From Octopus vulgaris (lineage: Eukaryota): 64,000 bases of DNA. The notes beneath the pieces were generated by a model. It ran no database searches and had not been told where the DNA came from. It worked only from the letters and a program-made list of their open reading frames with translations. Positions 6,351 to 54,448 of this stretch are shown here, piece after piece. Made by a program: the position numbers and the translations under genes. The stretch's first letter is position 1; every line of letters starts with the position of its first letter. The stretch spans positions 147,312,001-147,376,000 of the forward strand of contig OX597815.1 in assembly GCA_951406725.2 (NCBI GenBank). The letters run 5' to 3'.

Positions 6351-6369
6351 ATATATATATAACATACAT

Positions 6370-6429
<60 letters not shown>

Positions 6430-6974
6430 TATGTAGGTCAGACGGGAAACGCACTATTAGAACGCTCACCTGTACACCGGCAACAGATTAGAGACCCAGA
6501 GGTCCGTCAGATACCTTTGAGTAACCACCTAGCAACATGTGGTCGGAAAATATATATAATATTTCCATTCTACAAATTACACAGCCCAAGTGAAATCGAG
6601 AGGAAAATCAGAGAAAAGAATTTTATTGATAAATTCGAACCCAAGCTAAATAAGCAATAATAATAATACTTAGAGGTATTACTTCCACTGCTACGACCAT
6701 GACCACTAACAACAACAACAATACTAAAGGTGATCAAGACGAAGATAGCAGGAAAATTATCTTATTTAGGGTTAAAAGTTCTATTGCCACCACCATCACC
6801 ACTAGCAACAATAATTAAGGTGCTGACAATGATGATGATGACAATTGAAATATAAAAATATAAAAATCTCTGACAAAGGATATTTACAACATTTCTAAAA
6901 ATAACCCAACAATTGCTGCTTCGGCCAGGGTCAAGATACAGGACTCTTGACCTGTCCAACAAAGCGTGATGCCT

Positions 6975-7095
6975 AAACCAATCAGCTCAACCAACCAATC
7001 AGCTTAAGTAATTGAGTGATACTACACACTGATTGGTCAGAATACAGTTTGCAAAACCTAGCACTCTGGAGCCTACCCAGCTGTATTTATAGCAC
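6975..7095 (+). promoter_or_regulatory. Putative Pol II promoter in pLTR (CCAAT boxes + TATA-like)
   Basis: CCAATCAGC twice, CTGATTGG once, then TATTTATAG about 70 bp before the ribozyme. Repeated at +4271. Confidence 0.45.
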
Positions 7096-7154
7096 AGAAT
7101 CACTCATCTTGCTACAGTCAAAAATTGTGAAGCATGACTGTCAACACTACTACA

Positions 7155-7199
7155 TGAACCCGAAGATTGCAGAATTCAATGCATGAAAGTACTAGTTCA
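7155..7199 (+). ncRNA. Minimal type I hammerhead ribozyme (5' pLTR)
   Basis: TGAAC-CCGAAGA-T TGCA gaattcaa TGCA T-GAAA GTAC TA-GTTCA. Stem I TGAAC/GTTCA, palindromic stem III AGTACT, variant U4C. Confidence 0.8.
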
Positions 7200-7404
7200 A
7201 TCAGAATGAATATTTAACATTCTACTATTTCATTTTATTTTATTCAATTATAATATATTATCTTATAATATATCATTATAAGATTGTAAATAAAACGTGA
7301 AAATCAGACAAGGTTGGAATTCTTTTTATTAATATATTCTTCTATACACAATCACACACCCCCATATATATATATATCTATATTCCTATTGTGTATATGC
7401 CAAC

Positions 7405-8697
7405 ATGTCTGGAAAGCAACAAACAAAATTAACAGAATCCGAAAGAATTCTAATGGAAATTTCATCGAAATTATCAACACTCATCACGATGATTGACACA
7501 CAATCCTCTATTTTAAAGGAAATAGAAAAACAGTCTACAGACGGAAAACTTGGAAATGAACACATAAACTCTGAAATTAAGAATTTAGCTGAAATGATAC
7601 CAACAATTATAAAATCTACAAGAGAAAGCCTACCACAACCTCCTTGGATGTCAGAAATAAACGAAAGAAATCTGGAAAAAGAGGCACACCGAAAAAGAGA
7701 AGAGATACAGAAGACATGGAAAAAACTCCTTAACATAAGAAAACAAAACTTCTGGAAGGCATATAAATGCGAAAAATATGCTGAAATACATTCGAAATGG
7801 ATATCTTTAGCGGCACCCATACTTCCTCGGAAGTACCTAATTAAAGAAATTGCAGGAGAACCAGAGGAAGAAACTAAACTTCGATGGGACCTTAGTTTGA
7901 TAAAATTCAGGACCGACATCTCCATTACCCTGTCTAAACAATCCCGCTACAAAGCCAAATACGAAGCTATCGATGATCAAATCAGAGATGAAATATCCAA
8001 ACTAACGACCGGCAATATAGCAGAAAAAATGCGAGAACTATGGATCAGAGATATCTCAAAAGAAGAAAGCAGATCAAGAAAGTTTTGGCAGCGGAAACAA
8101 TTATTTCTCGACAAATATGCTACAAATTACGGTAAAGACACCAGAACTCCGAGAAATAGCATTAAAAGTGGACAACCTCACCAACGCAACATACACCAGA
8201 ACACGTGGCAACATGAACACCCGTTTCACCACGAATCGAAGACGAACTACGGTAAGAACTCTTCCCATTTTGTATGCAAACACCCTAATGCACACAACAT
8301 GAACAAAAAGCACAAACAAAATAGATATTGTTTTGAACAGACCATTAGCAGTAGAAATAACAGGAGATCATTTTCAAGACCTCAACAGAGATTACCCACA
8401 AGAAACTGGACAAAAAACCGATCTAGATCTAGAAGTAAACCCAGATCATTTCTCCAGGTGGTTAAAAACAATGCTAACAAGAAATTGAAAAGTAGCATAC
8501 ATAATACCAAAAACAAGACAGAAAACATAACGAAACCAAGTAAAGTACCACAACCAAAACGCAAAATTCATCAAGCAAACATCAACAGGAATATAAATCA
8601 TAACCAGAAAAAAATCCATTTTTTTACGTCAGGACAACAAACACCGGAGAAAGAAAAAATCCAAGAGGAAACATACCCCAAACAACTGAACGTATAG
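7405..8697 (+). CDS. PLE ORF1, 430 aa, function unknown (helical N-half, basic RS-rich C-half)
   Basis: Long non-repetitive ORF with a good start context (GCCAACATG) just after the 5' pLTR. K/E/L/I-rich N-terminus and RSRSRSKPRS-containing basic C-terminus. No domain recognised. Confidence 0.8.
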   Translation: MSGKQQTKLTESERILMEISSKLSTLITMIDTQSSILKEIEKQSTDGKLGNEHINSEIKNLAEMIPTIIKSTRESLPQPPWMSEINERNLEKEAHRKREEIQKTWKKLLNIRKQNFWKAYKCEKYAEIHSKWISLAAPILPRKYLIKEIAGEPEEETKLRWDLSLIKFRTDISITLSKQSRYKAKYEAIDDQIRDEISKLTTGNIAEKMRELWIRDISKEESRSRKFWQRKQLFLDKYATNYGKDTRTPRNSIKSGQPHQRNIHQNTWQHEHPFHHESKTNYGKNSSHFVCKHPNAHNMNKKHKQNRYCFEQTISSRNNRRSFSRPQQRLPTRNWTKNRSRSRSKPRSFLQVVKNNANKKLKSSIHNTKNKTENITKPSKVPQPKRKIHQANINRNINHNQKKIHFFTSGQQTPEKEKIQEETYPKQLNV

Positions 8698-10931
8698 ATC
8701 CTAAAATAATTAATTTATCAAAAAGAGATCTTGACAATGATGAAATCCAACTTCTGTCAAAAGGACTGAAATTCACACCTACACCAACAGCCAACCACCA
8801 AGAATTAAAGGAGGATATCCAAAAATTCTGTCGAAAATTACGACTTGTAGAATTCTTCGCTAACAAAAGTAATGAGATTGATGAATCCCTAGTAAGGAAT
8901 AAATCAAATTTCACCCCACCAAAAGGAAGAAATAACTACCTTGACCAATACATTGATATCCTGTCTAAATTTCCCCTTAGACGCAATACCAATGTTAGGC
9001 CAAACATTAGCAAATCAGAGATGTCTGCATGTAAACGTATACAAAACGATCAAACAATAATAATTAAACAAGCAGATAAAGGTGGTGCAATTGTTATTAT
9101 GGATACCGAATACTATAAGGATTTGGTTGAAGACCAACTGAAGGATACAACCTTCTATTGTGAAATACCCGCAAATATAGACCACCACATCATGAAAAAG
9201 ATCAACAACCTGATTTCAACACACCACAACTCACTTACGGATAATGAAAAAGACTACATCACCAATTTTGAACCAAAACCCAGCAACTTCTACGGCTTAC
9301 CAAAAATACACAAATCAAAAAACATTCAACAGGCAGTAAAAGAACAAGAAAGTGAGTACATAAAATTATTACATCTAAAAGACCTAAAACTTAGACCTAT
9401 TATAGCTGGTCCAGCATGCCCTACACACCGTCTAAGCAATTTTATTGACATTGTTTTGAAACCACTATGTACTTACATACCAAGTTTCATCAGGGATGAC
9501 ATCGACTTCCTGTCCCATCTTCCCAAAACAACAGAAACAAATTCAGTTTTACTAAGTTTTGATGTGGTAAGCCTCTACACCAATATTCCACACGATTTAG
9601 GAATAAAGGCGATTAAATACTGGTTAGAAAAACATAGAGAAGTGATTCCCAGCAGATTCACAGTGCCATTTATATTAGACACAGTCAAACTTATTCTAGA
9701 AAATAACACATTCTTCTTCAATGGAAAGAATTACATCCAAATTAGAGGCACGGCGATGGGAACGAGGTTTGCTCCCGTTTACGCCAACTCTGTAATGGGA
9801 TACTTAGAAGAACAACTCTACCAAGAGGTGGAGGTAAACTATGGCACTGGATTTAGAAAGTATATTGAAAAGGCATGGAAGAGATACCTAGACGACTGTT
9901 TCATAATCTGGACAGAATCTCTAAATACTCTGGAAGAGTTCAATATCCTCCTGAACAACCTACACCCATCTCTCAAATTTACAAAGGAGATGAGTAGTAC
10001 CAAATTACCATTCCTGGATATAATGGTAATTAAAAAAGACACCACCATCACCACAGATATATACTATAAACACACAGACACACATCAATACCTAAATTTT
10101 AAGTCGTGCCATCCACCACATACAAAACGTAACATCCCATACTGCCTAGCCAGAAGAATTTGTACTATTGTAGAAGATGCAAATATCAGGAACAAACGCC
10201 TAATAGAACTAAGAGAATTTTTGCTCAAACAAAAATACCCATCTCTACTTATAGAAAATGGCATACAGCGGGCTATAAAAATACCTATACAACAACTTAG
10301 GACAACCCAAGGAAGAGGAAAACAAGAACAAGTCATACCATTCATAGTGACACACAACCCATGTCACCAGAATATCTTCAACATTGCCAAAGTAAACCTA
10401 CCAATCATTGCCCAAAGTAATGAATTAAAAGACATAATCAAGGATCGAGCTATGGTGCTTAGTAAAAGACAGCCTAAAAACTTGAAAACATTACTAACAA
10501 AGGCAAAATTTGACCTCAGCAACAAAGACCAAACATTCACGGTATCTAAATGCAATGATAGCCGATGTGGCACATGCCAATTCATACATACCGGTCAATA
10601 TATAAACACAAAAACCGGGAAAATATTCACAAACGCGAATATGAACTGCAAAAGCAGAAATTTAATTTACTGCATCAAATGCCCAAATTGTGAAGAAATA
10701 TATGTAGGTCAGACGGGAAACGCACTATTAGAACGCTCACGTGTACACCGGCAACAGATTAGAGACCCAGAGGTCCGTCAGATACCTTTGAGTAACCACC
10801 TAGCAACATGTGGTCGGAAAATATATATAATATTTCCCTTCTACAAATTACACAGCCCAAGTGAAATCGAGAGGAAAATCAGAGAAAAGAATTTTATTGA
10901 TAAATTCGAACCCAAGCTAAATAAGCAATAA
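8604..10931 (+). CDS. PLE ORF2: reverse transcriptase + C-terminal GIY-YIG endonuclease (open from 8604; first ATG at 9021)
   Basis: Manual translation shows the frame open from after TAA 8601-8603. Motifs: IINLSKRDL..EIQLLSKGLKFTPTP, KQADKGG, FYGLPKIHK, LRPII, SFDVVSLYTNIP, QIRGTAMG, RYLDD, LPFLD, SCHP..KRNIPY, Cys linker KCNDSRCGTC, and LIYCIKCPNC..IYVGQTG..R..H. Confidence 0.93.
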   Translation, partial: PEKNPFFYVRTTNTGERKNPRGNIPQTTERIDPKIINLSKRDLDNDEIQLLSKGLKFTPTPTANHQELKEDIQKFCRKLRLVEFFANKSNEIDESLVRNKSNFTPPKGRNNYLDQYIDILSKFPLRRNTNVRPNISKSEMSACKRIQNDQTIIIKQADKGGAIVIMDTEYYKDLVEDQLKDTTFYCEIPANIDHHIMKKINNLISTHHNSLTDNEKDYITNFEPKPSNFYGLPKIHKSKNIQQAVKEQESEYIKLLHLKDLKLRPIIAGPACPTHRLSNFIDIVLKPLCTYIPSFIRDDIDFLSHLPKTTETNSVLLSFDVVSLYTNIPHDLGIKAIKYWLEKHREVIPSRFTVPFILDTVKLILENNTFFFNGKNYIQIRGTAMGTRFAPVYANSVMGYLEEQLYQEVEVNYGTGFRKYIEKAWKRYLDDCFIIWTESLNTLEEFNILLNNLHPSLKFTKEMSSTKLPFLDIMVIKKDTTITTDIYYKHTDTHQYLNFKSCHPPHTKRNIPYCLARRICTIVEDANIRNKRLIELREFLLKQKYPSLLIENGIQRAIKIPIQQLRTTQGRGKQEQVIPFIVTHNPCHQNIFNIAKVNLPIIAQSNELKDIIKDRAMVLSKRQPKNLKTLLTKAKFDLSNKDQTFTVSKCNDSRCGTCQFIHTGQYINTKTGKIFTNANMNCKSRNLIYCIKCPNCEEIYVGQTGNALLERSRVHRQQIRDPEVRQIPLSNHLATCGRKIYIIFPFYKLHSPSEIERKIREKNFIDKFEPKLNKQ

Positions 10932-11632
10932 TAATAATACTTAGAGGTATTACTTCCACTGCTACGACCATGACCACTAACAACAACAACAATACTAAAG
11001 GTGATCAAGACGAAGATAGCAGGAAAATTATCTTATTTAGGGTTAAAAGTTCTATTGCCACCACCATCACCACTAGCAACAATAATTAAGGTGCTGACAA
11101 TGATGATGATGACAATTGAAATATAAAAATATAAAAATCTCTGACAAAGGATATTTACAACATTTCTAAAAATAACCCAACAATTGCTGCTTCGGCCAGG
11201 GTCAAGATACAGGACTCTTGACCTGTCCAACAAAGCGTGATGCCTAAACCAATCAGCTCAACCAACCAATCAGCTTAAGTAATTGAGTGATACTACACAC
11301 TGATTGGTCAGAATACAGTTTGCAAAACCTAGCACTCTGGAGCCTACCCAGCTGTATTTATAGCACAGAATCACTCATCTTGCTACAGTCAAAAATTGTG
11401 AAGCATGACTGTCAACACTACTACATGAACCCGAAGATTGCAGAATTCAATGCATGAAAGTACTAGTTCAATCAGAATGAATATTTAACATTCTACTATT
11501 TCATTTTATTTTATTCAATTATAATATATTATCTTATAATATATCATTATAAGATTGTAAATAAAACGTGAAAATCAGACAAGGTTGGAATTCTTTTTAT
11601 TAATATATTCTTCTATACACAATCACACACCC

Positions 11633-11648
<16 letters not shown>
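10694..11648 (+). repeat. 3' pseudo-LTR of the PLE (overlaps end of ORF2)
   Basis: Near-identical to 6423-7377 and runs into a long (TA)n tract. Confidence 0.95.
11426..11470 (+). ncRNA. Minimal type I hammerhead ribozyme (3' pLTR)
   Basis: Identical to 7155-7199. Confidence 0.8.
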
Positions 11649-11683
<35 letters not shown>

Positions 11684-11705
11684 TATATAACATACATAAC
11701 ATATA

Positions 11706-11781
<76 letters not shown>

Positions 11782-11787
<6 letters not shown>

Positions 11788-18091: not shown

Positions 18092-18147
<56 letters not shown>

Positions 18148-18603
18148 ACACATACACACATACATACATACAAATATACATATACATATATATATATATA
18201 CAATCCAATACAGGCCCATTCCCTAATTTTAATTTTATTATCTTCATTTATTACTTTTGTTATCTTTGATCGCTAGGGCTAAGAATCCTGGCAATAGCTG
18301 CTTGTCCATTTGTCTGTCTACTAGAAGGCAAGTACTCATTCCCGCACTCACACTCATTAGCACGTACATTCACCCATTCGTACACTCATACACATACACG
18401 TACGCACGCGTTATATTCATACATACAAACATCTACATACGTTCACGTATATACACATACGTACTCGTACCTACAGATTCGTGTCTACACTTTAGGAGGC
18501 TAGTCTATACATATACACCAATAAATATACATATATATATATATATATATACCCGCATATACATACACACACACACATATATACTCCTACATACAGATAC
18601 ATA

Positions 18604-18661
<58 letters not shown>

Positions 18662-19166
18662 TACACATACATACACATACACACATACATATACACACAC
18701 ATACATACACATATATATACATACACAAACATATATACACACACATATATATACATACACACATACACACATACATACGTATACATACATACATACATCT
18801 ATACATCCATACTTACATGCATTTATACGCATACACACACCCATCTATATATATGTATATATATATATATATATATATACACACTCACACATACATATAC
18901 AAATCTACGCACACACATACATACATACACGTATACGCATACACGCACATACACATATACATGCGTACCCATACACGTGCACACACGCACGCGCATCCAT
19001 ATAAATACACACACACACATATATATATACACGTGTGCAAGCATACATACATACTCATACGCGCACACATACTTACAAATACATATATGCACACACTTAC
19101 ACACATATATATACATACACATATACATGCATACATACATATATGCATACATACACACACGCACTC

Positions 19167-19240
<74 letters not shown>

Positions 19241-19719
19241 ATGTATGCATAGACATGTATGCATGTATATGTGTATGTATATATATGTGTGTAAGTGTGT
19301 GCATATATGTATTTGTAAGTATGTGTGCGCGTATGAGTATGTATGTATGCTTGCACACGTGTATATATATATGTGTGTGTGTGTATTTATATGGATGCGC
19401 GTGCGTGTGTGCACGTGTATGGGTACGCATGTATATGTGTATGTGCGTGTATGCGTATACGTGTATGTATGTATGTGTGTGCGTAGATTTGTATATGTAT
19501 GTGTGAGTGTGTATATATATATATATATATATACATATATATAGATGGGTGTGTGTATGCGTATAAATGCATGTAAGTATGGATGTATAGATGTATGTAT
19601 GTATGTATACGTATGTATGTGTGTATGTGTGTATGTATATATATGTGTGTGTATATATGTTTGTGTATGTATATATATGTGTATGTATGTGTGTGTATGT
19701 GTATGTGTGTGTGTGTATA

Positions 19720-19779
<60 letters not shown>

Positions 19780-20238
19780 TATGTATCTGTATGTAGGAGT
19801 ATATATGTGTGTGTGTGTATGTATATGCGGGTATATATATATATATATATATGTATATTTATTGGTGTATATGTATAGACTAGCCTCCTAAAGTGTAGAC
19901 ACGAATCTGTAGGTACGAGTACGTATGTGTATATACGTGAACGTATGTAGATGTTTGTATGTATGAATATAACGCGTGCGTACGTGTGTGTGTATGAGTG
20001 TACGAATGGGTGAATGTACGTGCTAATGAGTGTGCGTGCGGGAATGAGTACTTGCCTTCTAGTAGACAGACAAATGGACAAGCAGCTATTGCCAGGATTC
20101 TTAGCCCTAGCGATCAAAGATAACAAAAGTAATAAATGAAGATAATAAAATTAAAATTAGGGAATGGGCCTGTATTGGATTGTATATATATATATATGTA
20201 TATGTATATTTGTATGTATGTATGTGTGTATGTGTAGG

Positions 20239-20281
<43 letters not shown>

Positions 20282-20669
20282 AGATATATGTGTATGTGCG
20301 TATGTGTGTGTAGATACGTATACATGTGTGTATAGGTATAAGTGAGAATCTCCTTATTTACCTATAACTCTATCCCCCCTTTTTTTATATATATATATTT
20401 ATATATATATATTTTTTATATATATATTTTTTTATATATTTTTTTATATATATTTTTTATATTTTTTATATTTTTTTATATTTTTTATATTTTTTATTTT
20501 TATTCTTTTATTTTATCTTTTTATTTTTTTATTTTTTATTTATTTTTTTATTTTTTTATTACCTTGACCACTCCCCCAAGTATGATATTTTGCGCTATGC
20601 CTACCCCCCAAAAAGTCCCCCACCACCACTCCTCTAAATGTATAAATGCTAATACAATTCTTGTTAAAT

Positions 20670-50270: not shown

Positions 50271-50351
50271 AAAAAGTTTAGTTGTGGGGTATCGTACGAG
50301 TGGGATTATATATGAAAAAAGGTTTGAAAATGCAATTTAAACGATGTTTAT

Positions 50352-50396
50352 TTACTTAACCGGTTTCACTCTTTGGTAAAAGATTGTCAAAAGTAA
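50352..50396 (-). ncRNA. Variant hammerhead ribozyme (left arm)
   Basis: Reverse complement of 51899-51943. Confidence 0.65.
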
Positions 50397-51898
50397 CATT
50401 GAATATTATGGGTTCAAAAAAGTTTTTTACATAATTGTCACATTGAATATTATGAATTCAAAAATGTTTTTTTATACATAATTGTCACATTACATGTATA
50501 AATATAGTATAAAAAAGTTCAATAGTGTGATGAGAATATTTGGAAAAATTGGCAGAAAAGAATAAAACAAATATATTATTGGAAATTTGGTTGCGTTAAT
50601 TATTGGTTGTCGCAAATTGTCACATTACATGTATATATATACAGTCTTTGGTAGAAAGGACATGTTAAAGACATAAGGAAGTGTAATAGTTTGGTGAGAA
50701 AGCTTGTAATATTGACAGAGAAAATTAAAATGGATATTTTAGACATCTCAGAATATTTTGAATCGAAGGCGAGAATTTGTTTTTTACTGACCTGTTTGTT
50801 TTAGCAGAAAAGTTGAATTGAGAGATCTAAAGATATGTACCCAGTTTGGTTTATACTTCCCCTTCAAGCATCAGTGATTTTGGGGTTATTGGGAGGTGAG
50901 TATGCGGGTGTGAATAGATGTGTCCGTGTGCCTGCTGGTCAGACAGCGTCTGTTTGTCACACACATATATACATACACACACAACAACAATACACACACA
51001 CACATAGTATACACACACACACCACATACACACAACACACACACACAGAACACACACACAGAACACACACACACACAACGCACCCACATATAAAATATAT
51101 ACACACATCACACAAATATAACATGTATTTATATATAATATACACACATATATAACACATACACACACAACACACACACACACACACACACACAACACAC
51201 GCACACATATATACATAATATAAATATCACACAAATACACCTAGCATATATATACATATATGTATGTGTGTATGTGGTGTGTGTGTGTATACTATGTGTG
51301 TGTATTGTTGTTGTGTGTGTATGTATATATGTGTGTGACAAACAGACGCTGTCTGACCAGCAGGCACACGGACACATCTATTCACACCCGCATACTCACC
51401 TCCCAATAACCCCAAAATCACTGATGCTTGAAGGGGAAGTATAAACCAAACTGGGTACATATCTTTTTTTCTCTCAATTCAACTTTTCTGCTAAAACAAA
51501 CAGGTCAGTAAAAAACAAATTCTCGCCTTCGATTCAAAATATTCTGAGATGTCTAAAATATCCATTTTAATTTTCTCTGTCAATATTACAAGCTTTCTCA
51601 CCAAACTATTACACTTCCTTATGTCTTTAACATGTCCTTTCTACCAAAGACTGTATATATATACATGTAATGTGACAATTTGCGACAACCAATAATTAAC
51701 GCAACCAAATTTCCAATAATATATTTGTTTTATTCTTTTCTGCCAATTTTTCCAAATATTCTCATCACACTATTGAACTTTTTTATACTATATTTATACA
51801 TGTAATGTGACAATTATGTATAAAAAAACATTTTTGAATTCATAATATTCAATGTGACAATTATGTAAAAAACTTTTTTGAACCCATAATATTCAATG

Positions 51899-51943
51899 TT
51901 ACTTTTGACAATCTTTTACCAAAGAGTGAAACCGGTTAAGTAA
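51899..51943 (+). ncRNA. Variant hammerhead ribozyme (U3-A8 core)
   Basis: TTACTT-TTGACAA-T CTTTT acca AAGAG T-GAAAC CG GTT-AAGTAA. 6-bp stem I, palindromic ACCGGT. Confidence 0.65.
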
Positions 51944-51981
51944 ATAAACATCGTTTAAATTGCATTTTCAAACCTTTTTTC

Positions 51982-52028
<47 letters not shown>

Positions 52029-52688: not shown

Positions 52689-53053
52689 AAGAGCGATGCC
52701 TTATAGAAATAACAGGGTAGGTTGCCAACTCTGCTCCATGGAGACATATGAAATTTTAAAGCATAAAAAAAATAGCTGTAAGACCTTCTAACTGTAAATG
52801 CTCTAATATCTACACAGCCTTTTTTTTTCTCTTATTACGCAAAAATAATAAATCTTTAGAGCGAGTTATTAATAAAATTTAGAGCGAGTTATAAACAGTA
52901 GCTGTAACACATCGTGACGTATATTTGCCATTTAAATATGGCTAACCCCTAAGGGTGGATGCTACTGTAGTTTGTAGCCCCAGGAGGACACCTCCCCCAG
53001 CTGGCTGTAGACACACGTTCTGTGCCCTATCAAATATTTATACACACACACAC

Positions 53054-53110
<57 letters not shown>

Positions 53111-53198
53111 ACATATAATTTAGGATAAAGTAATGTGTAACCAATCCGGCAATTATTCAAATATGAAACTAATAATATAATAATAATTTACACACATA

Positions 53199-53260
<62 letters not shown>

Positions 53261-53716
53261 TATGTGTGTAAATTATTATTATATTATTAGTTTCATATTT
53301 GAATAATTGTCGGATTGGTTACACATTACTTTATCCTAAATTATATGTACAATATATATAAAATAAATATAAGAGAGTGGTCACTATATTGATCACACTA
53401 GCACCAGTTAATCCAAAAGGTTTCAACCACGAAAAATACATGTTTCCCATGAAAGCCAGTACGACTGTTAGCTCACACGGACAGGGCAAATAAAAAATAA
53501 CAAAAATACAGATTATTTTGGGACAATTGTTTCGCTATTAATGAATTAAATGTAATATTACTTACAATAATCCATTTGTAGCTCTTCAGCCAAGACTATC
53601 TGGATGAAATCCACTCAATCACACGCCAGATTTTACCATAACGATAAATACGCGTGCGGTTCAATTGATTACATCGGACGTTATAATTCAAATGCCCCAA
53701 CCAATACAATATAAAT

Positions 53717-53759
<43 letters not shown>

Positions 53760-54448
53760 GTGTGTGTGTGTATAAATATTTGATAGGGCACAGAACGTGT
53801 GTCTACAGCCAGCTGGGGGAGGTGTCCTCCTGGGGCTACAAACTACAGTAGCATCCACCCTTAGGGGTTAGCCATATTTAAATGGCAAATATACGTCACG
53901 ATGTGTTACAGCTACTGTTTATAACTCGCTCTAAATTTTATTAATAACTCGCTCTAAAGATTTATTATTTTTGCGTAATAAGAGAAAAAAAAGGCTGTGT
54001 AGATATTAGAGCATTTACAGTTAGAAGGTCTTACAGCTATTTTTTTTATGCTTTAAAATTTCATATGTCTCCATGGAGCAGAGTTGGCAACCTACCCTGT
54101 TATTTCTATAAGGCATCGCTCTTCTAACTATTTCCCAATTAAGGTTATATTTAATATTATTATTTTTGAGTTCCCAGATCTTACTTGAAAGTGTGGTGCA
54201 ACCTGCTTTATGACGTAACTTAAATGAGGAGATATAGTTGCTAACTCTTCGTTTAAATTTTATAGTACAACCCAAATAAAAAATTTGCTTCTCAGTAGTT
54301 ATGGTACATTTATAGATTACTTTTTCTTGCTTATAATCACCCCAAATTATTTTATGGTTAATACCATAAAGATTTCTGGTGCATCTAAGTTAAGTACCAC
54401 ATTCATGTGAATTCATTGGAACTCACTTGAATCTTAATTGTTTTACTT

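Follow-up and report, generated by a model that had tools for sequence, protein, structure and literature searches.

Heptamers of the form X_XXY_YYZ drive -1 frameshifts of the gag-pol type, and these sites usually, but not universally, have a stem-loop or pseudoknot 5–9 nt downstream. For Penelope-like elements (PLEs), the frameshift mark in one published figure legend reportedly refers to Athena/Terminon. That legend (Fig. 1 of PMC8557442, Craig 2021) states that a frameshift with a pseudoknot can separate ORF1 in two-ORF PLEs, and the abstract of the same paper describes canonical EN+ PLEs as single-ORF elements. Frameshifted two-ORF PLEs are already in print and the general idea is not new. 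Slippage on U runs is known from other systems. Alphaviruses have U_UUU_UUA as a tested site of -1 slip, which in the Semliki Forest complex comes without a compact 3' structure (PMC2569925), and on (UUU)3 with no stimulator 1.47% -1 slip was measured in HEK293T cells (PMC10954444). Reporter work in E. coli showed that a ribosome pausing at UGA increases the -1 slip of the one trailing it when the heptamer lies 8–10 codons upstream (PMC6815119). A different effect of the stop distance, via pseudoknot refolding, was reported for SARS-CoV-2 (PMC8168617).

A literature search outside Repbase and the bioRxiv supplements returned no paper on a ribosomal frameshift or slippery site in Penelope or Neptune elements, so an earlier description is possible. 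The available parts of PMC3846280, PMC6431247, PMC5408684, PMC5009743, PMC13282606, PMC7943196, PMC3905857, PMC7544508, 10.1101/2025.05.22.655539 and 10.64898/2026.07.22.740005 do not describe this slip site. Here we describe a PLE with two overlapping frames, a layout that is fixed in its family, and a slippery site conserved in position and phase in its relatives. What this adds is a clade of EN+ elements whose U6 site comes without any predicted RNA stimulator, together with a young family that is intact and a signature in the spacing of the stop codon that can be tested.

Identity and structure of the element

The element found in the window (the whole stretch of 64,000 nt analysed) is a young, multi-copy EN+ PLE, called Neptune-like here for the features listed below; its RT was compared with the fetched loci only. 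In a Pfam search, ORF2 matched RVT_1 (E 2.5e-6, below the gathering cut-off) and GIY-YIG (E 3.3e-5, residues 687–773), and it had the GLKF, DKG and YLDD motifs. The linker before GIY-YIG, CNDSRCGTC, follows the CX2-5CxxC pattern. The CCHH residues were recognized in IYCIKCPNCEEIYVGQT, with two Cys between GIY and YIG, and in RVH and NHL. The pseudo-LTRs form a partial tandem, as a direct repeat of 961 nt with 99.7% identity, and the (TA)n tracts bounding the element at both ends agree with a (TA)n insertion preference (Table 1). Inverted and tandem copies were found among the genomic loci of the family. For a hammerhead, there was no Rfam match at gathering score and no canonical CUGANGA..GAAA core on either strand. 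The single-ORF layout of canonical EN+ PLEs was not found, with two frames present in most copies and across the clade. The nearest homologues with a eukaryote name were from bivalve molluscs.

Table 1 Features of the element in the window.
Feature	Position	Strand	Remarks
5' pseudo-LTR (partial tandem copy of the 3' end of the element)	6423..7383	+	Starts in (TA)n tract 6351–6432
ORF1, 430 aa	7405..8697	+	All-helical N-terminal ~240 aa predicted, then basic low-confidence tail; without known family
ORF1/ORF2 overlap, 94 nt	8604..8697	+	ORF2 in -1 frame
Slippery heptamer U_UUU_UUU (mostly U_UUU_UUA in relatives)	8619..8625	+	Putative -1 frameshift site
ORF1 stop UAG 8695–8697, overlapped by ORF2-frame AUA 8694–8696	8694..8697	+	69 nt past the heptamer
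ORF2, 775 codons	8604..10931	+	First ATG 9021
ORF2 motifs	INLS 8709, GLKF 8763, ADKG 9072, YLDD (RT) 9885	+	PLE N-terminal motifs and RT
ORF2 C-terminal part	CX4CxxC linker 10551–10577; GIY-YIG with CCHH residues 10665–10802	+	
3' pseudo-LTR	10694..11654	+	Terminates in (TA)n tract 11635–11784

The ORF1 frame is open at 7333–8697. Structure prediction gave long helices for residues 11–240 of the protein, followed by a basic tail of low confidence. It had no Pfam family, all its Atlas matches were below 0.9, and no PDB fold matched at E ≤ 0.001. The product is probably an RNA-packaging component. A search for longer ORF1 fusions gave none (weak evidence by the search tool's own statement), and neither did the viral contigs searched contain relatives.

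Elsewhere in the window there were long inverted repeats at 18092–20291, 50307–51988 and 52821–53992, with arms of 273–728 nt and 93–100% complementarity. Contigs of a sister family, 85–86% identical over the region 9165–10567, were found in three public runs (X5, X7, X11).

The preliminary description of this locus had stated that the RT frame opens 417 nt ahead of its first ATG, that the ATG-less segment already codes for the PLE N-terminal motif, that it overlaps ORF1 by 94 nt in the -1 frame, and that a T7 lies there in X_XXY_YYZ phase. All of this was confirmed. INLS and GLKF both precede the first ATG, the overlap follows from the frame coordinates, and the phase is given by ORF1 reading CAT TTT TTT ACG. 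The locus thus has the -1 overlapping downstream ORF without an AUG of its own that is expected for programmed -1 frameshifting. For an overlap this rich in A, having some in-phase heptamer is not unusual (shuffle P 0.30). In-phase T6 runs are rare, with none in 5000 shuffles, and the T7 is the sole run of at least six T within the coding region.

Fixation among genomic copies

All 40 full-length matches scored over 8400–8900 (one being the window, out of 392 candidates) were 100% identical. On the ORF2 N-terminus, 150 of 3313 candidate copies were scored, and 111 of them, by hand count, had the same 775-codon frame. The slip-site pattern was found in 222 places, with 0 for the control, and T7 was present in 100/100 among the matches listed. 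In ~200 places the family is intact and near-identical.

Contigs from eight public runs, the type of which is a guess, were used for sequence and joints only; they therefore show sequence and not expression. In seven of the eight, a gap-free contig crossed the overlap, and one contig, with a depth of 481, was unbroken over 7390–9300. The length of the T7, for which a check had been advised, is not an assembly slip, being the same in identical copies and in gap-free contigs of independent runs. A spliced mRNA joining the frames had been named as a refuting result, and no GT..AG joint or spliced join was listed in the contigs of the eight runs, where rare variants are lost. The other such result, one continuous ORF in the other copies, was not obtained either. 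The two-frame layout was the norm (111/150), and small indels in the overlap fused the frames in 13/150 copies, representing 12 events; some copies had a continuous 1199-codon frame.

Within the overlap, the 12 fusing events stood against 2 of opposite sign, compared with 5 against 7 in 9081–10931 (Fisher p 0.038). This excess fits selection for RNAs yielding more fusion protein, but local mutability or homopolymer error fit as well, and we give it little weight, as fragile extra support. One fusing deletion was restricted to one arm of an inverted copy (L034), and one fused tandem pair (L334/L339) also had a nonsense change. In a second young family (31 loci) there were three opposite-sign deletions and at most one fusing-type insertion (L274), the latter in a 94%-identical copy cut at the slip site. 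With the one-arm deletion, the nonsense-bearing pair and no excess in the second family, cis-selection on fused RNAs was dropped as an estimator of the slip rate. This second young PLE family of the window's genome (L322 family, e.g., L276–L294) has 66% nucleotide identity over 300 nt and U_UUU_UUA at the same offset; three copies are without one G just past the site.

Conservation in relatives

Relative loci were drawn from metagenome contigs, GTDB contigs and the window's genome. The 48 family representatives analysed had at least 300 open ORF2 codons and at least 200 nt upstream, and the others were excluded. PLE sequences were found in records titled bacterial MAGs (L125, L130, L133–L182), and the PLE loci on GTDB contigs are probably animal DNA within bins. 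A pattern search used for finding loci presupposed the motif and gave 606 matches versus 283 in the control, about half by chance, and therefore it served for locus finding only.

In a quick tree of the fetched loci only, the RT clade of the window comprised 11 family representatives (SH-aLRT 97), with ORF2 identities to the window of 32–56%. One of these families (L313) came via a motif-biased pattern. Ten of the 11 representatives had U_UUU_UUN in phase inside the -1 overlap. The eleventh was 5'-truncated; in its family, the site was present in two members without truncation. The chance of an in-phase T6 ranged from 0 to 0.046 per overlap, with P values overstating independence, because the families share ancestry. 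The in-phase X_XXY_YYZ heptamer is thus conserved beyond chance, and a run acting through polymerase slippage would need no fixed phase. No ORF2 AUG preceded the INLS region in nine of the ten site-bearing representatives. Three families of the window's genome had an ORF2-frame AUG 8–11 codons ahead of this region. A further family, found without the motif, had T6A in phase in most untruncated copies and an AUG 8 codons before the motif. The ORF1 of the window was homologous to the ORF1s of four clade families, through which the L052 ORF1 was linked as well.

At the protein level, a profile from eight ORF1s detected 1108 clusters. The best 150 of the 1108 were examined, and 93 of these were full-length homologues of 330–560 aa. 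F[LF] was found in the last 40 residues of 83/93 (81 with F-L), compared with 5/93 for the preceding 40 residues. The residue ahead of F[LF] in the 83 homologues was H, S, P, R, N, Y, D, G or L, and never K, Q, E, M or W. These five, none of which has a codon ending in U, account for 19% of flanking residues, and their absence is expected if the preceding codon must end in U. No in-frame ORF1-RT protein was found among the 150 ORF1 homologues listed, which, with at most 706 aa, are too short for ORF1 plus the whole RT-EN. Neither was there one among the 120 ORF2 homologues listed (longest 803 aa, with scattered starts). Many ORF2 protein records begin with M near the INLS region; these starts are gene-caller calls, with the codons not visible. 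The conservation that the preliminary description had proposed to look for is strong, both as the in-phase site across the clade of 11 and in the ends of the ORF1 proteins.

Other PLE groups had other arrangements at the ORF junction. In a distant EN+ clade there was an in-phase G_GGU_UUY (L101:4783, L104:2638, L112:1753, L113:2247, L116:297, L122:4855, L103:2632, L121:6669), with the ORF1 stop 0–6 nt later in most members. A modest hairpin ~7 nt downstream had 75% of cells paired and four pairs with double changes, only three pairs being retained by RNAalifold. This is the more textbook -1 signal. In another distant two-ORF group with a long ORF1 (L064, L066, L067, L071; also L068, L070, L081), the ORF2 AUG was at or near the ORF1 stop. 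Four of the seven examined had an AUGA overlap, with the AUG one base before the stop, and there was no in-phase heptamer. This group is a candidate for termination-reinitiation and a natural contrast to the window's clade. In L077, L078, L083, L084 and L089 the RT frame opened just 8–30 codons before the motif, in a pyrimidine-rich context, a possible intron acceptor.

RNA structure and spacing of the ORF1 stop

Folding of 8630–8700, which had been advised as a check for a stimulator, predicted none. Neither five RNAfold windows nor a hairpin and pseudoknot scan of 19 sites revealed a stem-loop or pseudoknot downstream of the heptamer in the window family (z -0.9 to +0.8; pseudoknot score 0), and the scan showed nothing common to the clade. 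The structure usual at 5–9 nt downstream is thus not predicted here; a long-range or protein stimulator is possible. A pairing of ACGUCAG with CUGAACGU was rejected, as no spacer precedes it and an older copy (L206) disrupts it.

Among the ORF1 homologues (P0126–P0271), 27 of the 83 with F[LF] had an F-to-stop distance of exactly 12 codons, and in 5 the stop was nearer. A random-stop model predicted ~3 at 12 codons and 35–42 nearer. This spacing equals 30 nt after the heptamer, or 11 codons from the second slippery codon. It was present on both sides of a FastTree phylogeny (12 changes, 7 forced) and the intervening peptides were unrelated, so that it looks ancestral and constrained. Of the DNA families, 3/13 (L055, L087, L321) showed this same distance of 30 nt between heptamer and stop. 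In the window family it lies 25 codons from the F and 24 from the second slippery codon. A second peak near two ribosome lengths was not evident among the 83 homologues.

The spacing of eukaryotic disomes is ~10 codons. Because the 12-codon spacing is about one ribosome length, the terminating ribosome is a possible stimulator. We tentatively suggest, as a minority possibility, that this large EN+ PLE clade (~1100 ORF1 clusters) may use a structure-free -1 frameshift stimulated by the ribosome terminating at the ORF1 stop. A trailing ribosome on U_UUU_UUA would collide with one terminating 30 nt further on. Other possible causes of the 12-codon peak are an RNA motif that escaped notice and shared descent. 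Under the roadblock model the window family, being off the peak, would be a derived form working with longer queues or basal slip. If the model is true, these elements would exemplify termination-roadblock frameshifting in a natural eukaryotic setting, with RT output coupled to ribosome load. The sharp spacing in the relatives offers a test of stop-codon ribosome collisions as a natural frameshift stimulator.

Source of the ORF2 protein

The conserved in-phase U_UUU_UUU is very probably a programmed -1 frameshift site, judging by the sequence comparisons, and would give an ORF1-RT-EN protein of 1175 aa. The ~1170-aa fusion by recoding of the preliminary description is in this way supported by comparison, while the slip itself is what we infer. 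Most ribosomes would translate ORF1 to its stop and make the helical protein with the basic tail. A minority would shift by -1 on UUU UUU and continue into RT-EN, the product having 407 + 768 = 1175 residues. Such a slip would keep the ORF1:enzyme ratio high, similar to gag:pol slips. With no local RNA stimulator predicted, the slip rate is probably low or otherwise dependent, for example on unstructured 3' sequence or on queuing behind a terminating ribosome.

It appears very unlikely that ORF2 is made separately, through termination-reinitiation either at the AUA over the ORF1 stop, positioned as in an AUGA overlap, or at some other near-cognate codon. The window shares an AUA across the UAG with three other clade families, true AUGA overlaps without an in-phase heptamer occur in the distant group mentioned above (4/7 examined), and in some close families an AUG stands a short distance ahead of INLS. 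However, 7/11 clade families have GUA, CUA or UUA as the ORF2 codon at this place, and in the window the AUA doubles as the I of a conserved I-D-P-K-I. Reinitiation also leaves unexplained the invariant in-phase U6 and the F-L end in 83/93 ORF1 proteins. Slightly less likely still is an RT made, without ribosomal slip, from a minority of RNAs or copies whose frames were joined when polymerase slippage or mutation inserted one base at A7, T7 or A6. The frame-fusing indels in 13/150 copies speak for it, as does the absence of insertions at five other A6 runs (0/458 observations, not deduplicated, in a control sample enriched for odd copies). The fused copies, however, are on differing SNP backgrounds and founded no visible sub-lineage, the relatives have T6 only and always in one phase, and the contigs are gap-free over the overlap in 7/8 runs.

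Splicing and AUG starts fit poorly as the source of ORF2. It is highly improbable that the site is a splice acceptor TTTTTTAG (in the window TTTTTTTACGTCAG, ending at 8632), with an intron joining ORF1 or a 5' exon to ORF2. Most DNA examples do read TTTTTTAG, which is acceptor-like, an AG directly follows the T run in 9/12 families examined, 11/12 have their first AG in phase 2 of ORF2, and PLEs can retain introns, as stated in the accessible part of PMC8557442. Against this, 11/12 families had no phase-compatible donor scoring above 2 (with a rough matrix from general knowledge), and 24/83 ORF1 homologues have no AG there, because the codon of the residue after F-L cannot start with G. The eight runs listed no GT..AG joint, and the deep contig was unbroken across the region. 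Two further readings can practically be discarded: that the split is a private indel or a homopolymer error of an element with one ORF, and that ORF2 starts at AUG 9021. Some copies have the continuous frame, but the split in most copies and in independent runs refutes an error; a start at 9021 would be preceded by 26 AUGs and would lose the INLS and GLKF motifs. A programmed -1 slip at the heptamer is therefore our preferred reading. It explains how a large Penelope group with an AUG-less RT frame can make its enzyme, and copies with such a frame should not be annotated as broken or N-truncated. Because the window family is intact and near-identical, with a defined 7-nt site, PLE recoding, so far a statement in a figure legend, is directly testable.

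Comparison with known systems

The window element resembles the Neptune-clade EN+ PLEs of PMC8557442 in its RT, the CX2-5CxxC linker, the C-terminal GIY-YIG with CCHH, the pseudo-LTRs in partial tandem and the (TA)n target. In contrast to the canonical EN+ PLEs described there, its conserved ORF1 is a separate frame and its ORF2 is AUG-less, and the canonical hammerhead core was not found. A frameshift between ORF1 and RT would be a feature common to this element and the two-ORF PLEs of the figure legend. A coiled-coil domain is listed in the legend as well, and the window ORF1 is predicted to be all-helical; unlike in the legend, no pseudoknot or hairpin is predicted in the window family. The active Fundulus Neptune element repeat.CL27 (10.1101/2025.05.22.655539) also has an ORF1 of unknown family upstream of RT-GIY-YIG, but it is described with two non-overlapping ORFs and no frameshift is proposed in the accessible text.

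The spacing of 11 codons from the second slippery codon to the stop, found in 27/83 ORF1 homologues, is similar to that in PMC6815119. The reporters used there were bacterial and engineered, and the spacing in the window family is 24 codons. The U_UUU_UUA sites of HIV-1 gag-pol (PMC5009743) and alphavirus 6K/TF (PMC2569925) belong to the same heptamer class and give the same F-L junction as in the relatives. The window element differs from these viral cases as a non-viral retrotransposon with U_UUU_UUU as its candidate site.
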